NCBI GenBank assembly: GCA_026014495.1
Contig: JAOZIF010000092.1
Location: forward strand, 1-16,611
Reading direction: 5' to 3'
Length of the DNA stretch: 16,611 nt
Source: Candidatus Bathyarchaeum sp.
Lineage (GTDB): Archaea; Thermoproteota; Bathyarchaeia; Bathyarchaeales; Bathyarchaeaceae
Under the pieces are notes generated by a model, which saw only the letters and a list, made by a program, of their open reading frames with translations, was not told where the DNA came from and made no database searches. Shown here piece after piece: positions 6,309-16,212 of this stretch. The stretch's first letter is position 1. Each line of letters opens with the position of its first letter. Both the position numbers and the translations under genes were made by a program.

Positions 6309-6589
6309 CAATGTAAACACATGCTCCTGTTCTTACTAGTATCGTCACAGTAATGGGTAAAAATTGGGTTTATACTTAAGGATGTTTTGAGGCGTCAGTC
6401 ACACCAAAGGTTACCTGTTAACATGATTTAGTAACATGCTTTCTTGTGCAGCATATATTAGTCACCAAAAACGTAACTTAATTCTACAAAAAATGGATAC
6501 AATATCATCTTACAAAAAGCATCGTAGCAAACAGCCTTTATCGTCAGTAACGTTTATTGAGTTTAGTGAACATAAATTTGGCGAAGCAC

Positions 6590-7186
6590 ATGATTGTCGG
6601 CATATGCGGAAGCCCAAGAAAAGGTGCAACAGAACATGTTCTACAAGAAGCCCTAAACAGGCTAGGGACAATGGGTTTTGAAACGGAGTTATTTTCGGTT
6701 AGAAACAAAAAAATCGGTTTTTGCATCCACTGTGACCACTGCCTAAAACACAAAGAATGCATAATAAAAGACGACATGAACACAGTTTACAGGCTACTAA
6801 AAGATGCAGAAGGAATAATTTTTGCTACTCCCGTCTACAATGGAGGAGTAAGCGCCCAAACAAAAGCAGTTATGGACAGATGCCGAGCCCTTTTTGCTTC
6901 GGACCCCAACGTCCTAAAACACAAGATAGGCATGACCATCACGGTTGGAGGAGACAGAAGTGGAGGACAAGAACTGGCAAGCCAGCAAATCCATACATTT
7001 TACATCCTAAATGGGGTTATACCAGTCAGTGGCGGTTTTTTTGGAGCAAACCTAGGAGCAAACTTCTGGTCAAAAGACACCATAGAAGACGTAAAAGAGG
7101 ACACTGAAGGCTTTCGAAGTTTAAAAAAGACAGTAAAGAAATTTGCTGAAGCTCTGAACAAAATTGAGAGAGAAGAGTATAATTGA
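6590..7186 (+). CDS. Iron-sulfur flavoprotein (Isf-like; flavodoxin-fold NAD(P)H-dependent FMN reductase family)
   Basis: GICGSPRKG FMN loop, compact 4Fe-4S motif CIHCDHCLKHKEC (CX2CX2CX5C), FATPVYNGGVSAQTKAVMDR and GGDRSGGQE. Start placed at ATG 6590 (MIVGICGSPR) instead of 6557, because homologs begin just before the GSPR motif. Confidence 0.9.
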   Translation: MIVGICGSPRKGATEHVLQEALNRLGTMGFETELFSVRNKKIGFCIHCDHCLKHKECIIKDDMNTVYRLLKDAEGIIFATPVYNGGVSAQTKAVMDRCRALFASDPNVLKHKIGMTITVGGDRSGGQELASQQIHTFYILNGVIPVSGGFFGANLGANFWSKDTIEDVKEDTEGFRSLKKTVKKFAEALNKIEREEYN

Positions 7187-7196
7187 AGGGGACAAA

Positions 7197-7781
7197 ATGT
7201 CTACTAAAAAGGGAATAGTAGAAAAAACGAAAAGGGTTGCTTGGGGAATCACAGGCAGTGGAGACCGTCTTGCTGAAACAATACAGGCAATGAAAGAAAT
7301 CAAGAAACAATACAAAGATGACGTTAGAATAACAATTTATCCTTCAAAAGCTGGAGATCAAGTACTGAAATTTTATGGTTTATTTAAGGGTTTGACAGAA
7401 AGCTTTGACAAAATCAGGGTTGAAGTAAACTCTAACGTTCCAACTCTTGCTGTTCAGCTACAAAGCGGCAAAATTGAGTTTTTGTTGATCGCTCCAGCTA
7501 CATCAAACACAGTTGCAAAACTCGCAAATGGAATAGCAGATACGCTTCTGACTAACGCAGCAATAATGTCTCTGAAATCCTTTGTTCCAGTGTATATTAT
7601 GCCCTGTGACTACGAGGAAGGCGAAACAGTTACGCAGCTTCCTGATGGGAGCGACATGAAGATTCGTGTAAGAAGAGAAGATGTTGAACAGACCAAAAAG
7701 CTGGCTGCAATGGATGGGGTCTTTATTCTGGAAAAGCCAGAAGATATTGTTCAGGTTTTCCAAAAGCACTTCAGAATGTGA
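7197..7781 (+). CDS. afpA: Archaeoflavoprotein AfpA (HFCD-superfamily FMN protein)
   Basis: RVAWGITGSGD, SKAGDQVLKFY and FLLIAPATSNTVAKLANGIADTLLTNA. Start placed at ATG 7197 (RBS GAAGGGG), 10 nt after the Isf stop. Confidence 0.85.
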   Translation: MSTKKGIVEKTKRVAWGITGSGDRLAETIQAMKEIKKQYKDDVRITIYPSKAGDQVLKFYGLFKGLTESFDKIRVEVNSNVPTLAVQLQSGKIEFLLIAPATSNTVAKLANGIADTLLTNAAIMSLKSFVPVYIMPCDYEEGETVTQLPDGSDMKIRVRREDVEQTKKLAAMDGVFILEKPEDIVQVFQKHFRM

Positions 7782-7905
7782 AAAGTAAAGTTAACAAAGC
7801 CTGCTTATTTTCAGCAATTCTTCATGTAGTGAGTAGACGTGACAACATTAGACATATAGAACATTTCAACTAAAGAAGCAAAGTTTATCTGTAACGACTA
7901 TACAT

Positions 7906-7946
7906 GAAATTACGAGAGGTCGTAATTTACGAGCAGTCGTAATTTC
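7906..7946. promoter_or_regulatory. Tandem overlapping palindromic operator upstream of the DtxR-feoAB operon
   Basis: AAATTACGA-GAGG-TCGTAATTT (7907-7928; perfect 9-bp arms) overlaps TTACGA-GCAG-TCGTAA (7927-7942). The outer arms GAAATTACGA/TCGTAATTTC match perfectly over 10 bp. Ends 15 nt before the ATG at 7962. Confidence 0.7.
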
Positions 7947-7961
7947 AGGCAGGAAAAACAA

Positions 7962-8648
7962 ATGAATACCGAAGAAACAACAGTCACAAACCAAGCAGAA
8001 GAATACCTTGAGGCAATCTACCGCCTAGAAAATAAAGTAGGCTCTGCCAGAACCATGGACCTTTCCAGAAAACTGGGAGTCGTTCCAGGTTCGATTACAA
8101 ACACAATCGAAAACCTAGAAAAAAAAGGACTTGTCATCCACGAACCATACAAAGGAGTGAAGCTAACTGACAGCGGACGAAAAATCGCGTCAAGCATCCT
8201 AAGAAGACACCGTCTCGCAGAAAGGTTACTAACAGACTTTTTGCACCTAGACTGGAGCGAAGTTCACGACCCAGCATGCAAACTAGAACACGCCCTTTCA
8301 CCTGAAATACTCAAGCCACTAGAGAAAGCACTAGGGCACCCAAAAAGATGCCCTCACGGAAATCCGATACCAACAAATTGTGGAGGAATCCTCGAAGAAA
8401 AAACAATAGTCCTCACTGAACTTGACGCAAAAACCAGTGGAGTTATTATAAAGATAACAGAGGAAAAAACTGAGACTCTAAAACAGCTTACTAAACTAAA
8501 ACTTACACCTGGACAAACAGTGCAAGTTGAACAGGTAAACCCTACAGGTTCTGTGACACTACAAGTCAGGAGCCAAAAATGCACAATCGAGCCCAATGTG
8601 GCGTCAGTAATCTATGTTAAAAAAAGCGAGGAAACGGTGGGAAACTGA
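7962..8648 (+). CDS. DtxR/IdeR/MntR-family metal-dependent transcriptional repressor with C-terminal FeoA-like SH3 domain
   Basis: EEYLEAIY, wHTH (DLSRKLGVVPGSITNTIENLEKKGLV), RRHRLAERLL, ACKLEH, CPHGNPIP, and a C-terminal LKLTPGQTVQV SH3-like domain. Confidence 0.93.
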   Translation: MNTEETTVTNQAEEYLEAIYRLENKVGSARTMDLSRKLGVVPGSITNTIENLEKKGLVIHEPYKGVKLTDSGRKIASSILRRHRLAERLLTDFLHLDWSEVHDPACKLEHALSPEILKPLEKALGHPKRCPHGNPIPTNCGGILEEKTIVLTELDAKTSGVIIKITEEKTETLKQLTKLKLTPGQTVQVEQVNPTGSVTLQVRSQKCTIEPNVASVIYVKKSEETVGN

Positions 8649-8944
8649 TGGAATTACCATTAACATCACTAAAAAACGGCGAAACTGCAGTTATACAGTC
8701 TACAGATTGCAGATTAGAAGGAAAAAAACTGTGTAGAAACAAAACAAAAAAAGGATGCAATAAAAAGTTTGCAAATGAACTTTGCATCAAAAGACTTACA
8801 GATTTGGGTCTGACTCCAGGCACCAAAGTGACTGTTATAAAATCAGCGCCATTCAACGGACCCCTAGAAATCAGTGTTAGAGGCTCAAGGCTAGCAATAG
8901 GAAGGGGAATGGCTAGTAGAATACTTGTGGATGTAGAAAGATGA
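8648..8944 (+). CDS. feoA: Ferrous iron transport protein A, with a 4-Cys insertion
   Basis: LTSLKNGETAVI...KRLTDLGLTPGTKVTVIKSAPFNGPLEISVRGSRLAIGRG. TGATG overlap with the DtxR stop. Confidence 0.9.
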   Translation: MELPLTSLKNGETAVIQSTDCRLEGKKLCRNKTKKGCNKKFANELCIKRLTDLGLTPGTKVTVIKSAPFNGPLEISVRGSRLAIGRGMASRILVDVER

Positions 8945-10872
8945 CCAATAACCATTTTACAATTGCGTTGGCAGGAAACGCGAACGTAGGGAAATCTGTA
9001 ATATTCAATCAGCTAACAGGTTTGCATCAGCACATTGGAAACTGGCCTGGAAAAACAGTTGAAAAAGCAGAAGGAACTCTGCATTTCAAAGGCTACACAA
9101 TAGACATAATTGACCTACCAGGAATTTACTCACTATCAACATTTTCTATAGAAGAGTTAGTCTCAAGAGAGTACATCGCAACCGAAAAGCCAGATTTGGT
9201 AATAAATGTTGTAGATGCCTCGCTTCTTGAACGAAATCTGTTTTTCACGTTGCAGCTTCTGGAACTGGAAACTCCCCTGCTAATAGCGTTAAACCAGATA
9301 GACATGGCAAAGAAAAAGGGAATTCTCATAGACTGCCAGAAAGCAGAGAAACTTTTGGGGGTACCAGTTGTTCCAACTGTTGCAGTGAGTGGAAAAGGCG
9401 TTTCTGATATGCTAGAAACGGCAATCCAAGTTATAGAGAAAAAAAGGAAAATAGTCCCCCTAAAGCCACGATATGGAAAAGAAATTGAAGAGCGAATTGA
9501 AAAACTAGTCAAAATACTTAACAAAACACAACTAAAGTACCCCTCCAGATGGGTTGCTATAAAACTTCTTGACGAAGACAAAGAAGTTGAAAAAGATGTA
9601 CAGCAAGTAAGCCCAAAAACTGTTACAGTTGCTCAAAAACTTAGGGCAGAGCTGGAGGATATTCATGGGCACTCTTGTCCAACTGTTGTCACTTCTGAAA
9701 GGTACCAAGTTGCAAGCAGGATTTCAAAGGAAATACAGCAAATAACAAAACAAGTGAAGGCGCCCCTGCGAGAAAAGCTCCACACAGCAACAACGCACAA
9801 AGTTTTTGGCGTTCCAATAATGTTAGCTGTGATACTGGCAGTTTTTGTTGCAATATTTAGTTTTGGCGACTTCGCATCTGCCCTTTTAGGTGACCTCTTT
9901 TTTGAGTTAAAACCATCATTTGAAAGTGTTTTTGGAACAGGAATTGTTGGCGAACTAGTCTGGGGAGGACTAATGGAGGGCATTATTGGCGGAGTCACAG
10001 TTGCTTTGCCGTACATTCTTCCGTTCTATTTTATTTTGTATCTTTTCGAAGATTCAGGATATCTAAGCAGAATCGCCTTTCTGATGGATAACCTAATGCA
10101 CAAAATGGGTCTGCATGGAAAAGCCTTCATTCCGGTAATGCTTAGCTTCGGATGCAATGTTCCAGGGTGTCTAGGATGCAGAATAATGGAAACATCACGT
10201 GAACGACTGCTAACTGCGTTTGTTGTCACACTTGTTCCATGCGCCGCAACATCAGTTATCATTCTTGGGCTAGTTGGCAACTACGTTGGCATACAATGGG
10301 CCTTGGCTTTGTACATAGTCAATTTAGTCATAATATTTGTTCTCGGAAGAATTGCATTCAAAGCGCTGCCCGGCGAGCCCACCGAATTAATCATGGAGAT
10401 GAGCGACTACCGAGTGCCCCACATAAAAACGGTTGCAAAACAAACATGGTTTAGGCTAAAAGAATTCATAGTCATGGCGTTTCCCCTCATAATTGCAGGC
10501 AGCATTGTAATCAAAATCGCAGAGGTGACAAACTTGCTGGAACCAATCGCAAACTTGTCTAGCCCAATAACAGTTGCTTGGCTGGGACTGCCAGCAGTTA
10601 CAGGAATAGCATTAATCTTTGGTGTGCTACGAAAAGAGTTAACGTTGATAATGCTTGCTAGTTTGCTGGGAACAACAAATTTTGCTTTAGTTATGACTCC
10701 AGTTCAAATGATTGTTTTCACGCTAGTTGTTATGTTATACATACCGTGTGTAGCAACCATTGGGGCTTTGGTTAAAGAGTTTGGCTGGAAGAAAGCATTA
10801 ACAATCACTGTAATTGAAATCGCACTAGCTCTACTAGTGGGAGGCATAGCCTTCAGGCTACTTACAATATAA
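8941..10872 (+). CDS. feoB: Ferrous iron transport protein B
   Basis: G1 GNANVGKS, G2 NWPGKTVE, G3 DLPG, G4 NQID. The membrane domain has gate motifs EDSGYLSR, FGCNVPG and VPCAA. ATGA overlap with feoA. Confidence 0.96.
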   Translation: MTNNHFTIALAGNANVGKSVIFNQLTGLHQHIGNWPGKTVEKAEGTLHFKGYTIDIIDLPGIYSLSTFSIEELVSREYIATEKPDLVINVVDASLLERNLFFTLQLLELETPLLIALNQIDMAKKKGILIDCQKAEKLLGVPVVPTVAVSGKGVSDMLETAIQVIEKKRKIVPLKPRYGKEIEERIEKLVKILNKTQLKYPSRWVAIKLLDEDKEVEKDVQQVSPKTVTVAQKLRAELEDIHGHSCPTVVTSERYQVASRISKEIQQITKQVKAPLREKLHTATTHKVFGVPIMLAVILAVFVAIFSFGDFASALLGDLFFELKPSFESVFGTGIVGELVWGGLMEGIIGGVTVALPYILPFYFILYLFEDSGYLSRIAFLMDNLMHKMGLHGKAFIPVMLSFGCNVPGCLGCRIMETSRERLLTAFVVTLVPCAATSVIILGLVGNYVGIQWALALYIVNLVIIFVLGRIAFKALPGEPTELIMEMSDYRVPHIKTVAKQTWFRLKEFIVMAFPLIIAGSIVIKIAEVTNLLEPIANLSSPITVAWLGLPAVTGIALIFGVLRKELTLIMLASLLGTTNFALVMTPVQMIVFTLVVMLYIPCVATIGALVKEFGWKKALTITVIEIALALLVGGIAFRLLTI

Positions 10873-11491: not shown

Positions 11492-11529
11492 AAAAAAGGA
11501 GATGAAAGCAAAGACGTAAATCTTTGCTT
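11492..11529 (-). terminator. Hairpin plus T-tract terminator of the oxidoreductase operon
   Basis: 9-bp stem AAGCAAAGA/TCTTTGCTT (11506-11514/11521-11529) with a 6-nt loop. On the minus strand it is followed by TCATCTCCTTTTTT. Lies about 30 nt after the stop at 11561. Confidence 0.6.
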
Positions 11530-11560: not shown

Positions 11561-12757
11561 TCAAGTTGTGCGTGCCAGTTTCTTGGGATATGTAATCATC
11601 GTCCAGAACGGATAACCTGAAATTTTCTTTGATATCGACTTAGGTGTTATCGCGTTTGTTGGACAGTAGTGGGCACATGCTAAACAGTGTGCACAATCAG
11701 TGCTGGCAAAGGGTTCGTTTAATCCCGTGATTGTAACTGTGTTGCTTCCTCTGTTAGCAAAGTTGATGACTTTTTGACCTGAGAGGTTAGCGCACGCGCG
11801 AACACATCTTCCACACAGGATACAACGGTTGGGGTCTTTGACAAGAACCTCGTTTGAGTCATCGACAATTTCATCCTTTTTGGGAAGGCTGAAACGGTTT
11901 TCTGTTATTTTGTATCGACGCATCCAGTAGCGTATGTCTCTACTTTGCTGTATCTCATCTCCACATTCGGCGATAATCATCTGCAGAATCGACTTTCTAA
12001 GCTTAGTGATTTCTTCATCTTCGGTTGTGACAATCATTCCTTCTTCTATCTGAGTGCAGCAGGATGGAACTAGACCTCGTTTGCCTTCAATTTTCACTAG
12101 ACACATTCGGCAAGCTCCAATAGAACCTAGACTGGAGTCATAGCATAGATGTGGGATTCGTATCCGGTTAGCAGATAGCTCATCTAGCAGGTTAGCGTCT
12201 TTCTTTACTTCAACAGGCTTGCCATCTACAGTTATGGTAATCTTTTCTGGGTTAGGCTCTTTGTCAGCATCAAAGAATTTTGGATACAAATTGAATTGTT
12301 CCACTAGCATGGTTAAAGTGTAGCCTTCTGGTTCTGGTGCTAGACCGGTAGTTGGTAGAGGCGAAGTTAGGATAGGCCCTTTTTTGTTACTGAAGTTTCC
12401 GGACCCAAATGTTTTCGCAGTTGCTATTACCTTCTTTTTGGGAAACACAGTTTTTACACATTGATAGCCAATTTCGCATGTTAGAAGAATTATGGCTGTA
12501 GATTCGTTGAAGATGTCTTCGTGTGCTGCTTTGTGCTTCTTTGCTAGGTTAATTTGACAAGATTCACTTACAAGTTCCTTTTTGAGAACAGTGTAGCCAT
12601 CTTCTTTGAGCAAATCCTCTAGTGCAGTCATCTTTTCCATTCCTGCGATGCCACAGTGCTTCACACATGTGTCGCAACTCCAGATTACGATTTTATCGTC
12701 GTGGTTCAAGTTTCGTTTAAGTTCATCATACGATAAAGAACGAACAGATATTATCAT
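11561..12757 (-). CDS. Fusion: MetV-N-terminal-like Cys domain plus HydA/NuoG-type N-terminal Fe-S relay ([2Fe-2S] and 2x[4Fe-4S]); no catalytic domain
   Basis: N-terminal half has SCDTCVKHCG...ESC...LTCEIG. C-terminal half has ITVDGKPVEV...PHLCY...GACRMCLV...PSCC ([2Fe-2S]), CILCGRCVRAC and CAHCLACAHYCP. Start placed at ATG 12757 (ATGA overlap, RBS GGTGAGGTG); 398 aa. Confidence 0.8.
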   Translation of the reverse strand: MIISVRSLSYDELKRNLNHDDKIVIWSCDTCVKHCGIAGMEKMTALEDLLKEDGYTVLKKELVSESCQINLAKKHKAAHEDIFNESTAIILLTCEIGYQCVKTVFPKKKVIATAKTFGSGNFSNKKGPILTSPLPTTGLAPEPEGYTLTMLVEQFNLYPKFFDADKEPNPEKITITVDGKPVEVKKDANLLDELSANRIRIPHLCYDSSLGSIGACRMCLVKIEGKRGLVPSCCTQIEEGMIVTTEDEEITKLRKSILQMIIAECGDEIQQSRDIRYWMRRYKITENRFSLPKKDEIVDDSNEVLVKDPNRCILCGRCVRACANLSGQKVINFANRGSNTVTITGLNEPFASTDCAHCLACAHYCPTNAITPKSISKKISGYPFWTMITYPKKLARTT

Positions 12758-13236
12758 GCCAAACACCTCACCTTGATTTTTTCGCCAACAAGTGGCTCTC
12801 CAGTGTTTATCCGATACTCTTTACCCAGTTCTTCTTCATGATTCTTGTAAGGCATAACTACTTTGAAGATTTCTTTGTCAGTGTCAGTCACTACCAAGCC
12901 AATGTCTTCTGTGACCTGCACCACTTTCTTGTCAGCAAAGTTTCGCGTAAAACAGGACCACCCTGCAGAACAAGAAAGAACAATGATTGTGTTAGCGTCC
13001 AAATCAAGCTTTGCTTCTCTAAGTATAGGCTCTGAGCAAGCATACAATACGACAGCTTCGTCAGTGACGTGGTAGCCGTCCCGAATTAGCCTTAAGCCTA
13101 ACTCGTTGAGTTTGTTTAGTCCACCATTTCCACATGTTCTGGCACAAGTATTGCAGCTAATTATAGCAATCTTGTCTTCTTTTTTATCTAGTTTCTTGAT
13201 TATTTCCTCGTAGGGCTCAATTTTCGAAAAGATCAT
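12754..13236 (-). CDS. MetV (MTHFR small subunit) N-terminal-domain-like Cys protein, lacking the MetV C-terminal Cys-rich domain
   Basis: MIFSKIEPYEEII...KIAIISCNTCARTCGNGG...YAC...VLSCSAG matches my recollection of the MetV N-terminal pattern (MI...KP.EEI...GC..CA..C..GG...C...LAC.GAG). Start placed at ATG 13236 (ATGA overlap with the upstream stop); 160 aa. Confidence 0.7.
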   Translation of the reverse strand: MIFSKIEPYEEIIKKLDKKEDKIAIISCNTCARTCGNGGLNKLNELGLRLIRDGYHVTDEAVVLYACSEPILREAKLDLDANTIIVLSCSAGWSCFTRNFADKKVVQVTEDIGLVVTDTDKEIFKVVMPYKNHEEELGKEYRINTGEPLVGEKIKVRCLA

Positions 13237-15044
13237 TGAGTACAACCCTCCTCCAGTTTCACAGATTTTTCACAAATCATTCCAGGCACCTTTTCAATTG
13301 CATCAAACGGACAGGCTTCTGCGCAAGTTCCACATTTGATACATTTAGTTTGGTCTATAGTAGGTGTAGAGCCTTTCTCGCCTGAAATCGCCTGAACAGG
13401 ACAGCTTTTAACACACACCAAACAGCCTTTGCATTTCTCAGAATCCATACAATAGGTCACAAGTGGTTTACAGACTAGTGCTTCACATTTCTTAGAGTTG
13501 ATGTGATCAGCATATTCATTCTCAAAGTATCTGAGCGTTGTTAGTATCGGGTTTGATGCTGTTCTGCCTAGTGCACACAAACAAGCTTGTTGCATTACAT
13601 CGCTGGTTTCTTTTAGTAATTCTATGTCGTCAGCAGTGCCTTCGCCATTAGTGATTCGCTTCAATGTTTCATGCATTAACCGAGTTCCTATCCGCCCAAC
13701 AGAGCATTTACCACAGGACTCAGCAGTTGTGAATGAAAGGAAGAATCGAGCCATATCAACCATACAGTTTGTGTTATCCAGCACTACCATACCGCCAGAA
13801 CCCATAATGGCTCCTGCGCTTTGGAGACTGTCATAATCCATTTGCAAATCAAATCGGTCTGCAGGAACACAGCCACCGCTTGGTCCACCAAGTTGAACTG
13901 CTTTGATGGTTTTGCCTTTTGGAGGTCCTCCGGCTAGGTCATACAACAGCGTTTTAATTGGTGTCCCAATTGGCACTTCGTAAGCACCAGTTCTTGTTAC
14001 AGCACCAGTTACACAGTACATCTTTGTTCCTTTGCTTTTCTCTGTGCCCAAGGCAGCAAATTTTTCCCAGCCTTCAGCCATAATTGTTGCTACATGAGCA
14101 AGCGTCTCAACATTGTTTATGATAGTAGGCATACCCCAAAGACCCTTAACAGCAGGAAACGGAGGTCTCTGAAGTGGATTAGCTCGTTCACCCTGTATTG
14201 CAGCAATCATTGCTGTTTCTTCACCGCAAACGAACGCACCTGCACTCAGGAAAACTTCTATGTCAAAACAATAACCGCTACCAAGAATGTTTCCACCCAA
14301 GAAACCTTTCTCTCTAGCGTCTTCAGCAGCTTTCAGTAGACGTTTAGCAGCTAGGGGTTTTTCTGCACGGACAAATACGAAGCCTTTGTGAGCCCCGATT
14401 GCATGCCCTGCTATGATTAGCCCTTCTAAGATCCGGTGGGGATCAGATTCTGCCAAAAGCCGGTTCATGAATGCTCCGGGGTCACCTTCGTCACAGTTTG
14501 CAATCATGTATTTTACATTGCTTGGCTGTTCTTTGCAGATATTCCATTTTATCCATGTTGGAAAACCTGCGCCTCCTCTGCCTCGTAGGTTTGCTTTTTT
14601 TAATTCGTCTATTGTTTCTTCAGGTTTTCTGTCCAAACATTTTTTGAGCCCTTGATAGCCTCCAACAGCCACATAATCGTCTATTGATTCAGGATTGATT
14701 ATTCCACATTTTCCAGAAATCCATCTAACCTGATTTTTCCAGACATCAAGTTCATCTAAGGATGGAACGTTGCTTCCGTCAGGTTTTCTGAACCTGAATG
14801 CGTAGGCGCTTGAGTAGTCTTCATCTAAGTATTCGCGAATAATTTGTTCAACAATGTCAGGTGTTACATTAGCATAAATTACGGAAGGATAACCTTTCTT
14901 TGTCAGTTCAATCCAAGGGTCAATAAAGTCTAGACCCATACAGCCTACGGGAGTTATCTCTACATCCAAACCCATTAGGTTAACAGTATGGTTTATGCTT
15001 TGTAGAACTTCGTCAGCCCCAGCAGCAATTGTGCAACTAGCCAT
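13233..15044 (-). CDS. HydB/NuoF/HndC-like NAD(H)-binding FMN subunit (bifurcating-type architecture); true N-terminus uncertain
   Basis: Thioredoxin-like N-domain, LRGRGGAGFPT, CDEGDPGAFMNR, GAFVCGEETA, INNVETLA, SLBB domain with GGPSGG, ESCGKC, H..x..KKCEALVC, and a C-terminal 2x[4Fe-4S] domain (CKGCLVCVKSCP, CIKCGTCAEACP). Confidence 0.9.
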   Translation of the reverse strand: MASCTIAAGADEVLQSINHTVNLMGLDVEITPVGCMGLDFIDPWIELTKKGYPSVIYANVTPDIVEQIIREYLDEDYSSAYAFRFRKPDGSNVPSLDELDVWKNQVRWISGKCGIINPESIDDYVAVGGYQGLKKCLDRKPEETIDELKKANLRGRGGAGFPTWIKWNICKEQPSNVKYMIANCDEGDPGAFMNRLLAESDPHRILEGLIIAGHAIGAHKGFVFVRAEKPLAAKRLLKAAEDAREKGFLGGNILGSGYCFDIEVFLSAGAFVCGEETAMIAAIQGERANPLQRPPFPAVKGLWGMPTIINNVETLAHVATIMAEGWEKFAALGTEKSKGTKMYCVTGAVTRTGAYEVPIGTPIKTLLYDLAGGPPKGKTIKAVQLGGPSGGCVPADRFDLQMDYDSLQSAGAIMGSGGMVVLDNTNCMVDMARFFLSFTTAESCGKCSVGRIGTRLMHETLKRITNGEGTADDIELLKETSDVMQQACLCALGRTASNPILTTLRYFENEYADHINSKKCEALVCKPLVTYCMDSEKCKGCLVCVKSCPVQAISGEKGSTPTIDQTKCIKCGTCAEACPFDAIEKVPGMICEKSVKLEEGCTQ

Positions 15045-15079
15045 TGGAACTTTGATTTTGAGCTCTGACGCACCATATA

Positions 15080-15646
15080 TTATTTCTTCGGGTAAACTAT
15101 CAATTTTCGTTCTGGTTCACTCTCCTGTTTTTTGGCTTTTTCTCGATATTCTGCCAAAATTTTCTTCAGTGCCTTCTGGTCAACATGACCATAAAGTCGC
15201 TGATAATCGCCCGTGCTATCAGTGACCATGACTACAGGCGCTAAACTACAACACCCGAAACACCGTGCAGCCTCAAGACTGAAAACTTTGTCTTTGGTAA
15301 GATGCTGACCATGCTTCAAATCAAGAAGCAACCGCAGGTGCTCGAAATTGTCTGCGTTTCCTTTTGCGTGGCAACCTGTTCCCATGCACACTTGAATCAC
15401 ATACATGCCTGGAGGTTGAAGCCTAAACTGATGATAAAACGTGGCAACACCATAAACTTCACTAAAAGAGACACCCAGATTGACTGCAATCAGTCTCAAA
15501 CTTTCTTTTGGCAAGTATCCATGTCTTTCTTGAACTGCCTGAAGCACCTGAATTAAATCCTTACGAGCAGCACCTTTTGTTATTTTTAAAATGAACTGTT
15601 TCAGTTCAGTCTCTTCTGTAGATGGAAGAACTATAGATTTTTGCAT
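15080..15646 (-). CDS. HydC/NuoE/HndA-like [2Fe-2S] subunit
   Basis: LIQVLQAVQERHGYLP, VYGVATFYHQF, VCMGTGC and RCFGCCSLAPVVMV (CX4C...CX3C). RBS AGGCGG. Confidence 0.92.
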   Translation of the reverse strand: MQKSIVLPSTEETELKQFILKITKGAARKDLIQVLQAVQERHGYLPKESLRLIAVNLGVSFSEVYGVATFYHQFRLQPPGMYVIQVCMGTGCHAKGNADNFEHLRLLLDLKHGQHLTKDKVFSLEAARCFGCCSLAPVVMVTDSTGDYQRLYGHVDQKALKKILAEYREKAKKQESEPERKLIVYPKK

Positions 15647-15672
15647 TTGTGGATCCGCCTAGCTGTTTTTTA

Positions 15673-16212
15673 TCACAGGACCCTGAAGGGAGATTTCTCC
15701 TGTTTTTCAAGCAATTTTTTGTAAGTTGTAGCGGTTATGAGCTGGCTTAGATCACTTTTAGATCTAGGAGCAATAGTCACTATCCAACCATCATCATAAG
15801 GACTGTCGTTTATGACATCTGGAGTTTCCATTACTCTCTGGTTTATTTCCACTATTTTGCCGCTGATTGGGGCTATAAGATCAAAAGCAACGTACTCACA
15901 TCGCATCTCGTCAAGGTTTGCACATGGTCTTCCATAGACCGTTCCAAAGACTTCTCCGACTTCAACGTCTTCGCCTACAGTGGTGTTCTTGAAGATTTCT
16001 ACAAGTCCCACTTTTTCTCGTAGATGTTGCTGGGCATAATCGGTTACGCCAATTTTTTGATTGCCTTCAAGAGTGTTTTTTAGCCACATGTGAGTTTTTG
16101 TGTAGTCTCTGTTAGTCTTAACGCAGACCTGTTTTCCCTCGCACTGGACAAGGTAGTCCTTTTGTGCGGTGTTATTCTCGCCTGTTTTTAACATTGATAC
16201 GTTCTTGTACAC
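15673..16212 (-). CDS. Glycine-cleavage-H-like protein lacking the lipoyl lysine (Cys-x7-Cys loop instead)
   Basis: H-protein hallmarks YTKTHMW, IGVTDYAQ, G.EV..GEVFGTV, APISGKIVEIN, PDVINDSPYDDGWI. The canonical VESVKA is replaced by VYGRPCANLDEMRCEYVAF. GTG start at 16212 with RBS GAGGCG. Confidence 0.85.
   Translation of the reverse strand: MYKNVSMLKTGENNTAQKDYLVQCEGKQVCVKTNRDYTKTHMWLKNTLEGNQKIGVTDYAQQHLREKVGLVEIFKNTTVGEDVEVGEVFGTVYGRPCANLDEMRCEYVAFDLIAPISGKIVEINQRVMETPDVINDSPYDDGWIVTIAPRSKSDLSQLITATTYKKLLEKQEKSPFRVL

Follow-up and report, generated by a model that had tools for sequence, protein, structure and literature searches.

An apparently undescribed Bfu-family operon of Bathyarchaeia that couples a HydBC-like core to a pair of MetV N-terminus-like domains

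Introduction

What does a flavin/iron-sulfur (Fe-S) core of the electron-bifurcating type do when no recognizable catalytic module accompanies it? The question is raised by a five-gene operon in a 16,611-nucleotide (nt) stretch of DNA from Candidatus Bathyarchaeum sp. (assembly GCA_026014495.1, contig JAOZIF010000092.1), referred to here in its full length as the window; its source genome (G000) belongs to the Bathyarchaeia, measures 2.19 Mb, and is 93% complete. The five genes, all on the minus strand and spanning positions 16212 to 11561, encode an H-protein-like subunit, BfuC, BfuB, a free domain resembling the N-terminus of MetV (MetV-N), and a second MetV-N domain fused to BfuA.

In the Bfu family, BfuB consists of a flavin mononucleotide (FMN)-binding 51K domain, an SLBB domain, a NuoF-type 4Fe-4S domain, and a ferredoxin-type 4Fe-4S domain; it is found alongside BfuC, a NuoE-like [2Fe-2S] protein, and BfuA, which contains at minimum 2Fe-2S ferredoxin and 4Fe-4S ferredoxin-type domains (PMC9304861). 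Bifurcating BfuB proteins are separated from non-bifurcating ones by the AFM motif, the Phe of the GAFVCGEE loop, GGPSG, and the B2-site His (PMC12018979). We compared the operon with these descriptions and with related loci, and on balance we favor, with some reserve, a soluble Bfu (HydABC/NfnABC) flavin/Fe-S complex in which a MetV-N pair terminates the third branch and docks a protein partner. The operon is apparently an undescribed variant of the family: no description of the arrangement was found in the searched literature on Bfu, Bathyarchaeia, MetV, and gcvH, including the main text and one supplement of PMC9304861.

Results

The BfuB and BfuC core

The BfuB of the window matches PF01512 (4e-43), PF10531 (5e-8), and PF10589 (7.5e-29) and ends in two Fer4 motifs at residues 538-548 and 568-578, which form the C-terminal dicluster motifs C538..C548P and C568..C578P. 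The hallmarks AFM (residues 191-193), F271 (the Phe of the GAFVCGEE loop), GGPSG (386-390), and H514 are invariant in five divergent orthologues, as is the B2 site with its Cys3His ligand set (C427/H514/C520/C525). Pfam and the orthologue alignment hence bear out the HydBC-like core, with AFM, the B2 residues, and two ferredoxin motifs, that an earlier reading of the letters of the window (the original prediction) had proposed. The domains described for BfuB, BfuC, and BfuA in PMC9304861 are all present in the operon proteins, and so are all of the bifurcation motifs of PMC12018979; the full invariant set of Fe-S ligands in BfuBC is not, the gaps being the third Cys of the B1 site and the B5 site. 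By full-length alignment the closest solved structures are NfnB (9n5u_B, E 9e-200), 9bov_B, 8oh5_B, and the NiFe hydrogenase subunit B 7t2r_B. Candidate [2Fe-2S] ligands in BfuC are C87, C92, C129, and C132/133, and BfuC orthologues hold the same operon position in all related loci.

The motif of the FMN-proximal N3/B1 [4Fe-4S] site of BfuB reads C444-x2-C447-x2-G450 instead of CxxCxxC, which leaves C444, C447, and C490 of the canonical Cys residues. The alteration had been noticed in the window and proves to be a property of the whole clade: Gly450 replaces the third B1 Cys in 67 of 68 clade representatives, the sister clades keep the Cys, and the Gly is carried by 67 of the 120 best BfuB homologues. 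A phylogeny, which had been put forward as a check, was built with FastTree from 78 BfuB sequences and recovers the Gly-bearing proteins as a monophyletic clade of three sublineages, sister to Cys-bearing clades that include NiFe-Bfu members. The sole Cys-bearing clade member, P0312, comes from a locus with the same five genes and sits nested at a tip of the tree, a pattern that suggests a single loss of the Cys at the base of the clade and one reversion. Cys184 (shifted from position 182) and Cys170 occur in all sampled clade members and are rare or absent in the sister clades, while the likewise clade-specific Cys488 occurs in two of the three sublineages; C184, C170, or C488 may be candidates for a substitute B1 ligand. 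The N-terminal B5 site is reduced to two Cys residues, C4 and C35. In an active enzyme this site is able to hold zinc (PMC12018979).

At the 5′ end of bfuB no stop codon interrupts the frame over the 24 codons that precede the ATG at 15044 (15045-15116, minus strand), and the encoded stretch, ...LPEEIIYG..LKIKVP, matches the N-terminal extension of TTG-started orthologues (L044, L046). The corresponding start codon is TTA in the window and in the related genome G386, with ATG, GTG, and TTG all absent there. BfuB homologues occur as long (619-625 amino acids (aa)) and short (602-603 aa) forms, and the first β-strand of the window protein may be lost, or it may still be translated from a rare start codon or after a frameshift from bfuC.

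The MetV-N pair and the trimmed BfuA

The free MetV-N protein is paralogous to the first ~125 residues of the fusion (33% identity, E 3e-16). Neither domain has a Pfam match, even at E up to 10, and PF12225 (MTHFR_C/DUF5981), the C-domain of MetV, is likewise absent from both. A MetV-N profile, made from both window domains and their orthologues, matched 407 proteins among 1.84 billion representatives at the cut-off of E ≤ 0.001. PF12225 lies directly after the matched N-terminal 100-120 residues in seven of ten matches that were scanned; E-values on PF12225-bearing MetV proteins range from 1e-8 to 1e-13 over residues 1 to ~120, and one match is a 548-aa MetV-MetF fusion. Because the profile finds the N-termini of PF12225-bearing proteins and of a MetV-MetF fusion, both window domains are assigned by sequence as homologues of the N-terminal half of MetV, and the twin domains, one free and one fused, of the original prediction are thereby upheld.

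The free protein contains C28, C31, C35, C67, C89, and C95, and the fused domain C28, C31, C35, C67, and C94. A 73-sequence alignment shows C28, C31, and C67 without exception and C89 almost without; most members also have C35, which hardly varies among the fused copies. MetV is an FeS- and zinc-containing subunit with two [4Fe-4S] clusters (PMC8760232). Where MetV has its C-domain, the free protein has a β-rich tail (~residues 104-160), and its AlphaFold model (predicted local distance difference test, 96.5) consists of an α/β domain followed by this tail. Foldseek found no fold relative of the model in the PDB at E ≤ 0.001, VIA-align returned only generic Rossmann-like or periplasmic-binding-type α/β domains with Z up to 9.5, and a sequence search of the PDB with the MetV-N profile gave chance matches only. 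The protein atlas clusters for MetV-N are all named 'hypothetical protein'. Homology to MvhD, prompted by a similar Cys pattern, was rejected at an hhalign probability of 0.5%.

In the fusion, a conserved linker joins the MetV-N domain to a trimmed BfuA/HydA N-terminal part, with residues 172-380 matching just the first 200-odd residues of HydA/HoxU/NuoG. This part contains a Fer2_4 domain (1.3e-19), whose [2Fe-2S] site is formed by C205, C216, C219, and C233/234, and two [4Fe-4S] motifs, C312..C322 and C355..C365. The His-ligated cluster motif is deleted from the Bathyarchaeal BfuA part and is kept in the two distant, non-Bathyarchaeal fusions that were aligned, P0098 and P0106. Pfam and NCBIfam detect no H-cluster, molybdopterin, or Pyr_redox_2/GltD domain in the fusion, in line with the A subunit devoid of a catalytic domain that had been predicted. 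A locus search with the fusion alignment returned mostly ordinary HydA/NuoG relatives and two full-length fusions only.

Tandem pairs of MetV-N-like genes are found in unrelated contexts as well, including beside MvhD-ferredoxin genes. Judged from these contexts, the pair appears to be a portable module, because it is found with the Bfu core, with NuoEF, with a NuoF-GltD fusion, and with MvhD/ferredoxin genes. The NuoF-GltD case is an unrelated archaeal metagenome-assembled genome (L066), where a 1056-aa fusion is followed by the same free and fused MetV-N pair.

Other settings of the domain were seen as well. P0151 (252 aa) is a MetV-N-like domain fused to a HycI-type [NiFe]-hydrogenase maturation protease (PF01750, 1.3e-11), another tie between the MetV-N domain and hydrogenase systems. 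In other Bathyarchaeia (L020 and L023, from G139 and G187; L019 and L021), stand-alone MetV-N-like genes of ~126 aa adjoin genes that, judged by eye, are mch-like or encode KaiC-type ATPase-like proteins.

The H-protein-like subunit

The H-like protein passes the Pfam cut-off of its family (85 bits against 22) and fails both NCBIfam cut-offs for GcvH (96.9 against 117 and 77.9 against 115.85). Its model matches the E. coli H-protein with a Foldseek E of 1.6e-11 and a target-normalised TM-score of 0.89-0.94, and the GcvH fold is thus predicted to be kept. The protein has the TDYAQ motif and ~30 extra N-terminal residues, and a C-terminal tail, SPxRVL, is present in nearly all orthologues. In all 58 representatives the lipoyl hairpin has an 11-residue insertion and no lysine, which extends the predicted lack of a lipoyl site from the window to the family. 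Members of the family are found only in Bathyarchaeia and only in this operon, the next matches being canonical GcvH proteins at 35-40% identity. A complex prediction for the H-like protein with the free MetV-N protein and the fusion scored 0.30, with the decision mark at 0.32, and weighs neither for nor against contact. The most likely role of the H-like protein is that of a structural subunit or an adaptor, not of a redox carrier.

Conservation and distribution

Of 401 Bathyarchaeia genomes sampled, 7 have the twin MetV-N arrangement, which is also present on many metagenome contigs. The same five-gene order occurs within the genus of the window (G386, G356, and G310; 83-89% identity), in G376 (53-69%), and in G117 and SMTZ1-55-type contigs (45-63%), and it is kept in part in G339. 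At least three divergent Bathyarchaeia sublineages therefore share the order, at 45-89% identity overall, and the recurrence of the arrangement is far above chance. Between the window and G386 the ratio of nonsynonymous to synonymous substitution rates (dN/dS) is 0.05-0.09 for all five genes, which argues that they are under purifying selection and are not decaying. Two objections raised with the original prediction, that the arrangement might be missing from other genomes and that dN/dS might lie near 1, are answered by these values. Ordinary MetV or MetV-MetF fusions are present in many of the other sampled Bathyarchaeia, and the ~126-aa stand-alone protein occurs in a third group.

In ~400 sampled Clostridia genomes, a four-gene operon, NuoE-NuoF-MetVN-MetVN::BfuA, is intact in four (G401, G699, G449, and G557) and broken in a fifth. 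Its MetV-N and BfuA proteins are 40-45% identical to the Bathyarchaeal ones, and the ferredoxin-type domain is absent from its NuoF. In the fifth genome (G421, L173:6888-8106) the MetVN::BfuA fusion is split in two frames by in-frame stops and may be a decaying copy. Several genes that, judged by N-terminal sequence, appear to encode NifX-type proteins and MinD/Mrp-type ATPases stand directly beside the operon in G386 (L042:3578-6940) and G449 (L171:10744-14517), and G449 also has DUF134- and DUF5320-like genes nearby. Such neighbors were seen in 2 of ~10 contexts, the G000 contig ending before the corresponding point, and may hint at a special form of cluster insertion.

Organization of the locus

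The features of the locus are listed in Table 1. Direct reading of the letters verified both ATGA stop/start overlaps and the intergenic gaps of 26 and 35 nt between the five co-oriented genes, and folding confirmed the terminal hairpin, all as originally reported. The 10-bp stem of the hairpin (11529..11506) has a folding energy of -15.4 kcal/mol (z = -4.1), a stability that none of 200 shuffled sequences matched. The AbrB/MazE-PhoU-type regulator gene adjoins the operon in every related locus with a readable upstream flank. On the other side, positions 6557-10872 encode an FMN reductase, a flavoprotein (PF02441), a DtxR-type iron-dependent repressor with a FeoA domain, a small open reading frame, and FeoB; the FeoB/DtxR/flavoprotein flank recurs within the genus (L042, L046) and not in other lineages.

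Table 1. Coordinates of the operon and its boundary features in the window.
Feature	Position	Strand	Evidence
H-protein-like subunit, 179 aa	15673..16212	-	PF01597 4e-24
BfuC/HydC/NuoE-like [2Fe-2S] subunit, thioredoxin-like, 188 aa	15080..15646	-	PF01257 (2Fe-2S_thioredx) 9e-41
BfuB/HydB/NuoF-like subunit, 603 aa	13233..15044	-	Complex1_51K, SLBB, NADH_4Fe-4S, two Fer4 motifs
Free MetV-N-like subunit, 160 aa from ATG	12754..13236	-	No Pfam match; profile homology to MetV N-termini
MetV-N::BfuA fusion, 398 aa from ATG	11561..12757	-	Fer2_4 and Fer4 dicluster; paralogous MetV-N-like N-terminus
10-bp hairpin then U-rich tract, 31 nt past last stop codon	11490..11529	-	
AbrB/MazE-plus-PhoU-type regulator, divergent, cut by contig end	16327..16611	+	87% identical to L042:7622-8722; Pfam on orthologue

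Origin of the operon and comparison with known systems

The nearest BfuB proteins outside the clade are 60-64% identical, have the canonical B1 Cys, and come from Thermoproteota. Two sister-clade loci that were looked up (L059, L060) contain BfuC, BfuB, a short BfuA (215-223 aa), and the large and small subunits of a [NiFe]-hydrogenase, and an AbrB/MazE-type regulator gene lies near these clusters as well. Because the nearest outside BfuB proteins sit in such BfuC-BfuB-BfuA-NiFe clusters, the operon looks like an NiFe-Bfu cluster whose hydrogenase genes gave way to the MetV-N pair and the H-like gene. With that origin, BfuA would appear to have gained its MetV-N domain and lost the His-ligated cluster motif.

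Compared with the NiFe-HydABCSL enzyme of Acetomicrobium mobile (7t2r) and with L059/L060, the operon has the same BfuC-BfuB-BfuA order and nearby AbrB/MazE-type regulator. It differs in its MetV-N-extended BfuA without the His-ligated cluster, in the added H-like and free MetV-N genes, and in the exchange of the B1 Cys for Gly; no hydrogenase large or small subunit genes were found among the open reading frames of the window or in the related five-gene loci. Against NfnABC (Thermococcus sibiricus, 9n5u; Caldicellulosiruptor, 9bov) and StnABC (Sporomusa ovata, 8oh5), BfuB aligns end-to-end, with E from 9e-200 to 2e-191 for NfnB. AFM, GGPSG, the Cys3His B2 site, the C-terminal dicluster, a degenerate N-terminal thioredoxin-like domain, and the [2Fe-2S] BfuC are common to these systems. 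In contrast to the Nfn/Stn enzymes, the A subunit here lacks the GltD/flavin adenine dinucleotide (FAD)/NADPH domain and the His-ligated cluster and begins with MetV-N, there are two extra subunits (free MetV-N and H-like), and Gly takes the place of the third B1 Cys. Pyr_redox_2 and Fer4_20, as expected of an Nfn/Stn A subunit, are absent from all five operon proteins by Pfam.

For the type III methylene-tetrahydrofolate (methylene-THF) reductase, RnfC2 is reported to begin with a MetV domain and to work together with a free MetV (PMC8760232). By analogy, this enzyme offers the closest described parallel: the RnfC2-MetV-MetF system of Acetobacterium woodii (PMC8760232) and the operon both pair a NuoF/RnfC-type NADH/FMN flavoprotein with one fused and one free MetV-type domain. 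They differ in that the operon has no MetF and no PF12225, that its fused domain is carried by the BfuA relay and not by the flavoprotein, and that its Bfu core includes the ferredoxin-type domain. The Clostridial operon agrees in gene order and in adding a free and a fused MetV-N domain to a BfuA-type relay, whereas its NuoF, for want of the ferredoxin-type domain, makes no Bfu core by definition, and it has no H-like gene. The H-like protein itself shares its fold and TDYAQ motif with GcvH and with lipoate-less relatives (GcvH-L of Streptococcus, 5a35; NCBIfam 'not_gcvH' and 'GcvH_rel_desulf') but is set apart from that group by its scores below the family cut-offs, its 11-residue hairpin insertion without Lys, its SPxRVL tail, and its restriction to this operon.

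Discussion

In the complex that we favor, the catalytic module of the ancestral Bfu enzyme would have been lost, NAD(H) would react at the FMN of BfuB, and ferredoxin would react at BfuC and at the C-terminal dicluster domain of BfuB. From B1, a third branch is predicted to lead through the BfuA [2Fe-2S] cluster and two [4Fe-4S] clusters to the MetV-N pair. This pair is probably a heterodimer whose conserved Cys residues may bind metal (Fe-S or Zn), and it would dock a protein redox partner and pass electrons on to it, in parallel with RnfC2 and the free MetV. In loci of the G117/SMTZ1-55-type sublineage (L002, L003, L043), a 464-516-aa protein encoded directly downstream of the operon combines an HdrC-like dicluster N-terminus with a GltD-type FAD/NAD(P)H domain. 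The partner in this sublineage is probably that flavoprotein, and from the gene content the complex would probably be an Nfn/Stn-like transhydrogenase with a detachable NADPH module.

Several observations weigh against this proposal. B1 is described as part of the bifurcating flavobicluster (PMC12018979), and because it is short of one Cys ligand across the clade, the core may not bifurcate at all. No third-substrate module is found at the locus in the genus of the window, in G376, or in G339. The best GltD-like protein of the source genome, which has an HdrC-like N-terminus, is only 36% identical to the downstream GltD-type protein of the other lineages and is encoded in an HdrA-MvhD context on another contig (C96:2608-6382). 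The twin module of the Clostridia pairs with a NuoF without the ferredoxin-type domain and therefore needs no Bfu core. A search of 400 Clostridia genomes with the MetV-N profile gave no long RnfC2-type fusion at E ≤ 1e-6, leaving PMC8760232 as the single source of that analogy. As a separate observation, the GltD-like gene of the source genome lies ~2 kb from an MvhD (FlpD) domain match in an 834-aa open frame.

A bolder version, which we put forward only tentatively, would make the operon a new functional Bfu class, in which the hydrogenase module has been swapped for the MetV-N heterodimer as a new terminal site that docks a dedicated protein or holds its own metal. It is just as doubtful that, within such a class, the H-like protein is a built-in adaptor or substrate and that B1, with three Cys residues or a swapped ligand, retunes the flavobicluster.

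The main rival to a bifurcating complex with a docked partner is a non-bifurcating one, in which the MetV-N pair is itself terminal, as a second dock for ferredoxin or another carrier or as the site of an unusual metallocluster that turns over a small molecule, and the core is a plain NADH-linked oxidoreductase. The Clostridial operon, which includes no other redox gene, speaks for this reading, as do the lost B1 ligand and the NifX-like and MinD/Fer4-ATPase genes beside the operon in G386 and G449; MetVF enzymes, moreover, take reduced ferredoxin in vitro (PMC8760232). We nevertheless judge it unlikely: the Bathyarchaeal BfuB keeps all of the other Bfu hallmarks, among them the ferredoxin-type domain and the B2 site, for which a plain diaphorase would have no need, metallocluster genes adjoin the operon only in the two contexts already mentioned, and the generic α/β fold of the domain bears no likeness to a known catalytic site.

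On the original prediction, the complex would use its MetV-like domains to bind a methylene-tetrahydropterin reductase (MetF or Mer) from another locus and so act as an NADH/ferredoxin-coupled one-carbon (C1) reductase. The domains are truly homologous to the MetV N-terminus, and MetV is the known electron-input partner of MetF (PMC8760232); stand-alone MetV-N-like genes lie, as noted by eye, beside an Mch-like gene in other Bathyarchaeia, and the genome of G117 has two MetF genes on other contigs, each within ~1 kb of a MetV-like match. G117 is the exception, however: MetF was not found in four of the five other operon carriers (G386, G356, G376, and G339), and neither MetF (PF02219) nor PF12225 was found in the source genome. 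PF12225, which both MetV-N copies lack, is present in every MetV that adjoins MetF. The proposed genome check recovered Mer in the source genome, which also has an Mch, while no CdhC was found; this Mer is of the true F420-dependent type (444 bits against a cut-off of 349). No MetV or other Fe-S partner is known for F420-type Mer. With MetF and PF12225 missing and Mer of the F420 type, docking onto a C1 reductase is improbable, and the third partner of the complex is not MetF.

Comparably improbable is a lipoylated protein (canonical GcvH or an E2) as third substrate, with the H-like protein as a mimic that occupies or regulates the H-protein dock. The same genome check found LplA-like and LpdA-like genes away from the operon, the source genome also has a canonical GcvH, a lipoate ligase (LplA) gene lies upstream of the operon in G401, an LpdA-like gene stands beside L066, and gcvH and lpdA adjoin metVF in acetogens (PMC8760232). 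But no lipoate gene lies near the four other Clostridial loci, the small difference in potential between the lipoamide couple and NAD(H) would offer little driving force, and a GcvH/LpdA scenario for MetVF was judged highly unlikely in PMC8760232. The second GcvH of G402, considered as a lipoate clue, turned out to be an ordinary lysine-bearing GcvH. Reduction of a protein disulfide on the H-like protein as a redox carrier, the other route originally proposed, fits a gene that is always first in the operon and found only with it and the two hairpin Cys residues of the window copy (C97 and C105), but is very improbable, as no Cys is conserved across the family alignment: two sublineages have Tyr at the position of C97, others have Ala, Ser, Trp, Tyr, or Thr at that of C105, the hairpin of some members contains no Cys whatever, and there is no lysine for lipoate.

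The Bfu family has been described as having an invariant BfuBC cofactor set, with BfuA only feeding electrons from a catalytic module. In this operon, strong selection maintains the core throughout a clade that has no recognizable catalytic module and lacks one ligand of a flavin-adjacent cluster, a natural variant with which the parts of the proposed flavobicluster that are truly required can be tested. The N-terminal half of MetV, in turn, appears to be separable and usually paired, and its combination with a Bfu core, NuoEF, a NuoF-GltD fusion, and MvhD/ferredoxin genes bears on the long-open question of how the electron donor is wired to MetVF-type methylene-THF reductases. Bathyarchaeia are abundant in anoxic sediments, and an additional NADH/ferredoxin-coupled enzyme would alter models of their redox balance.

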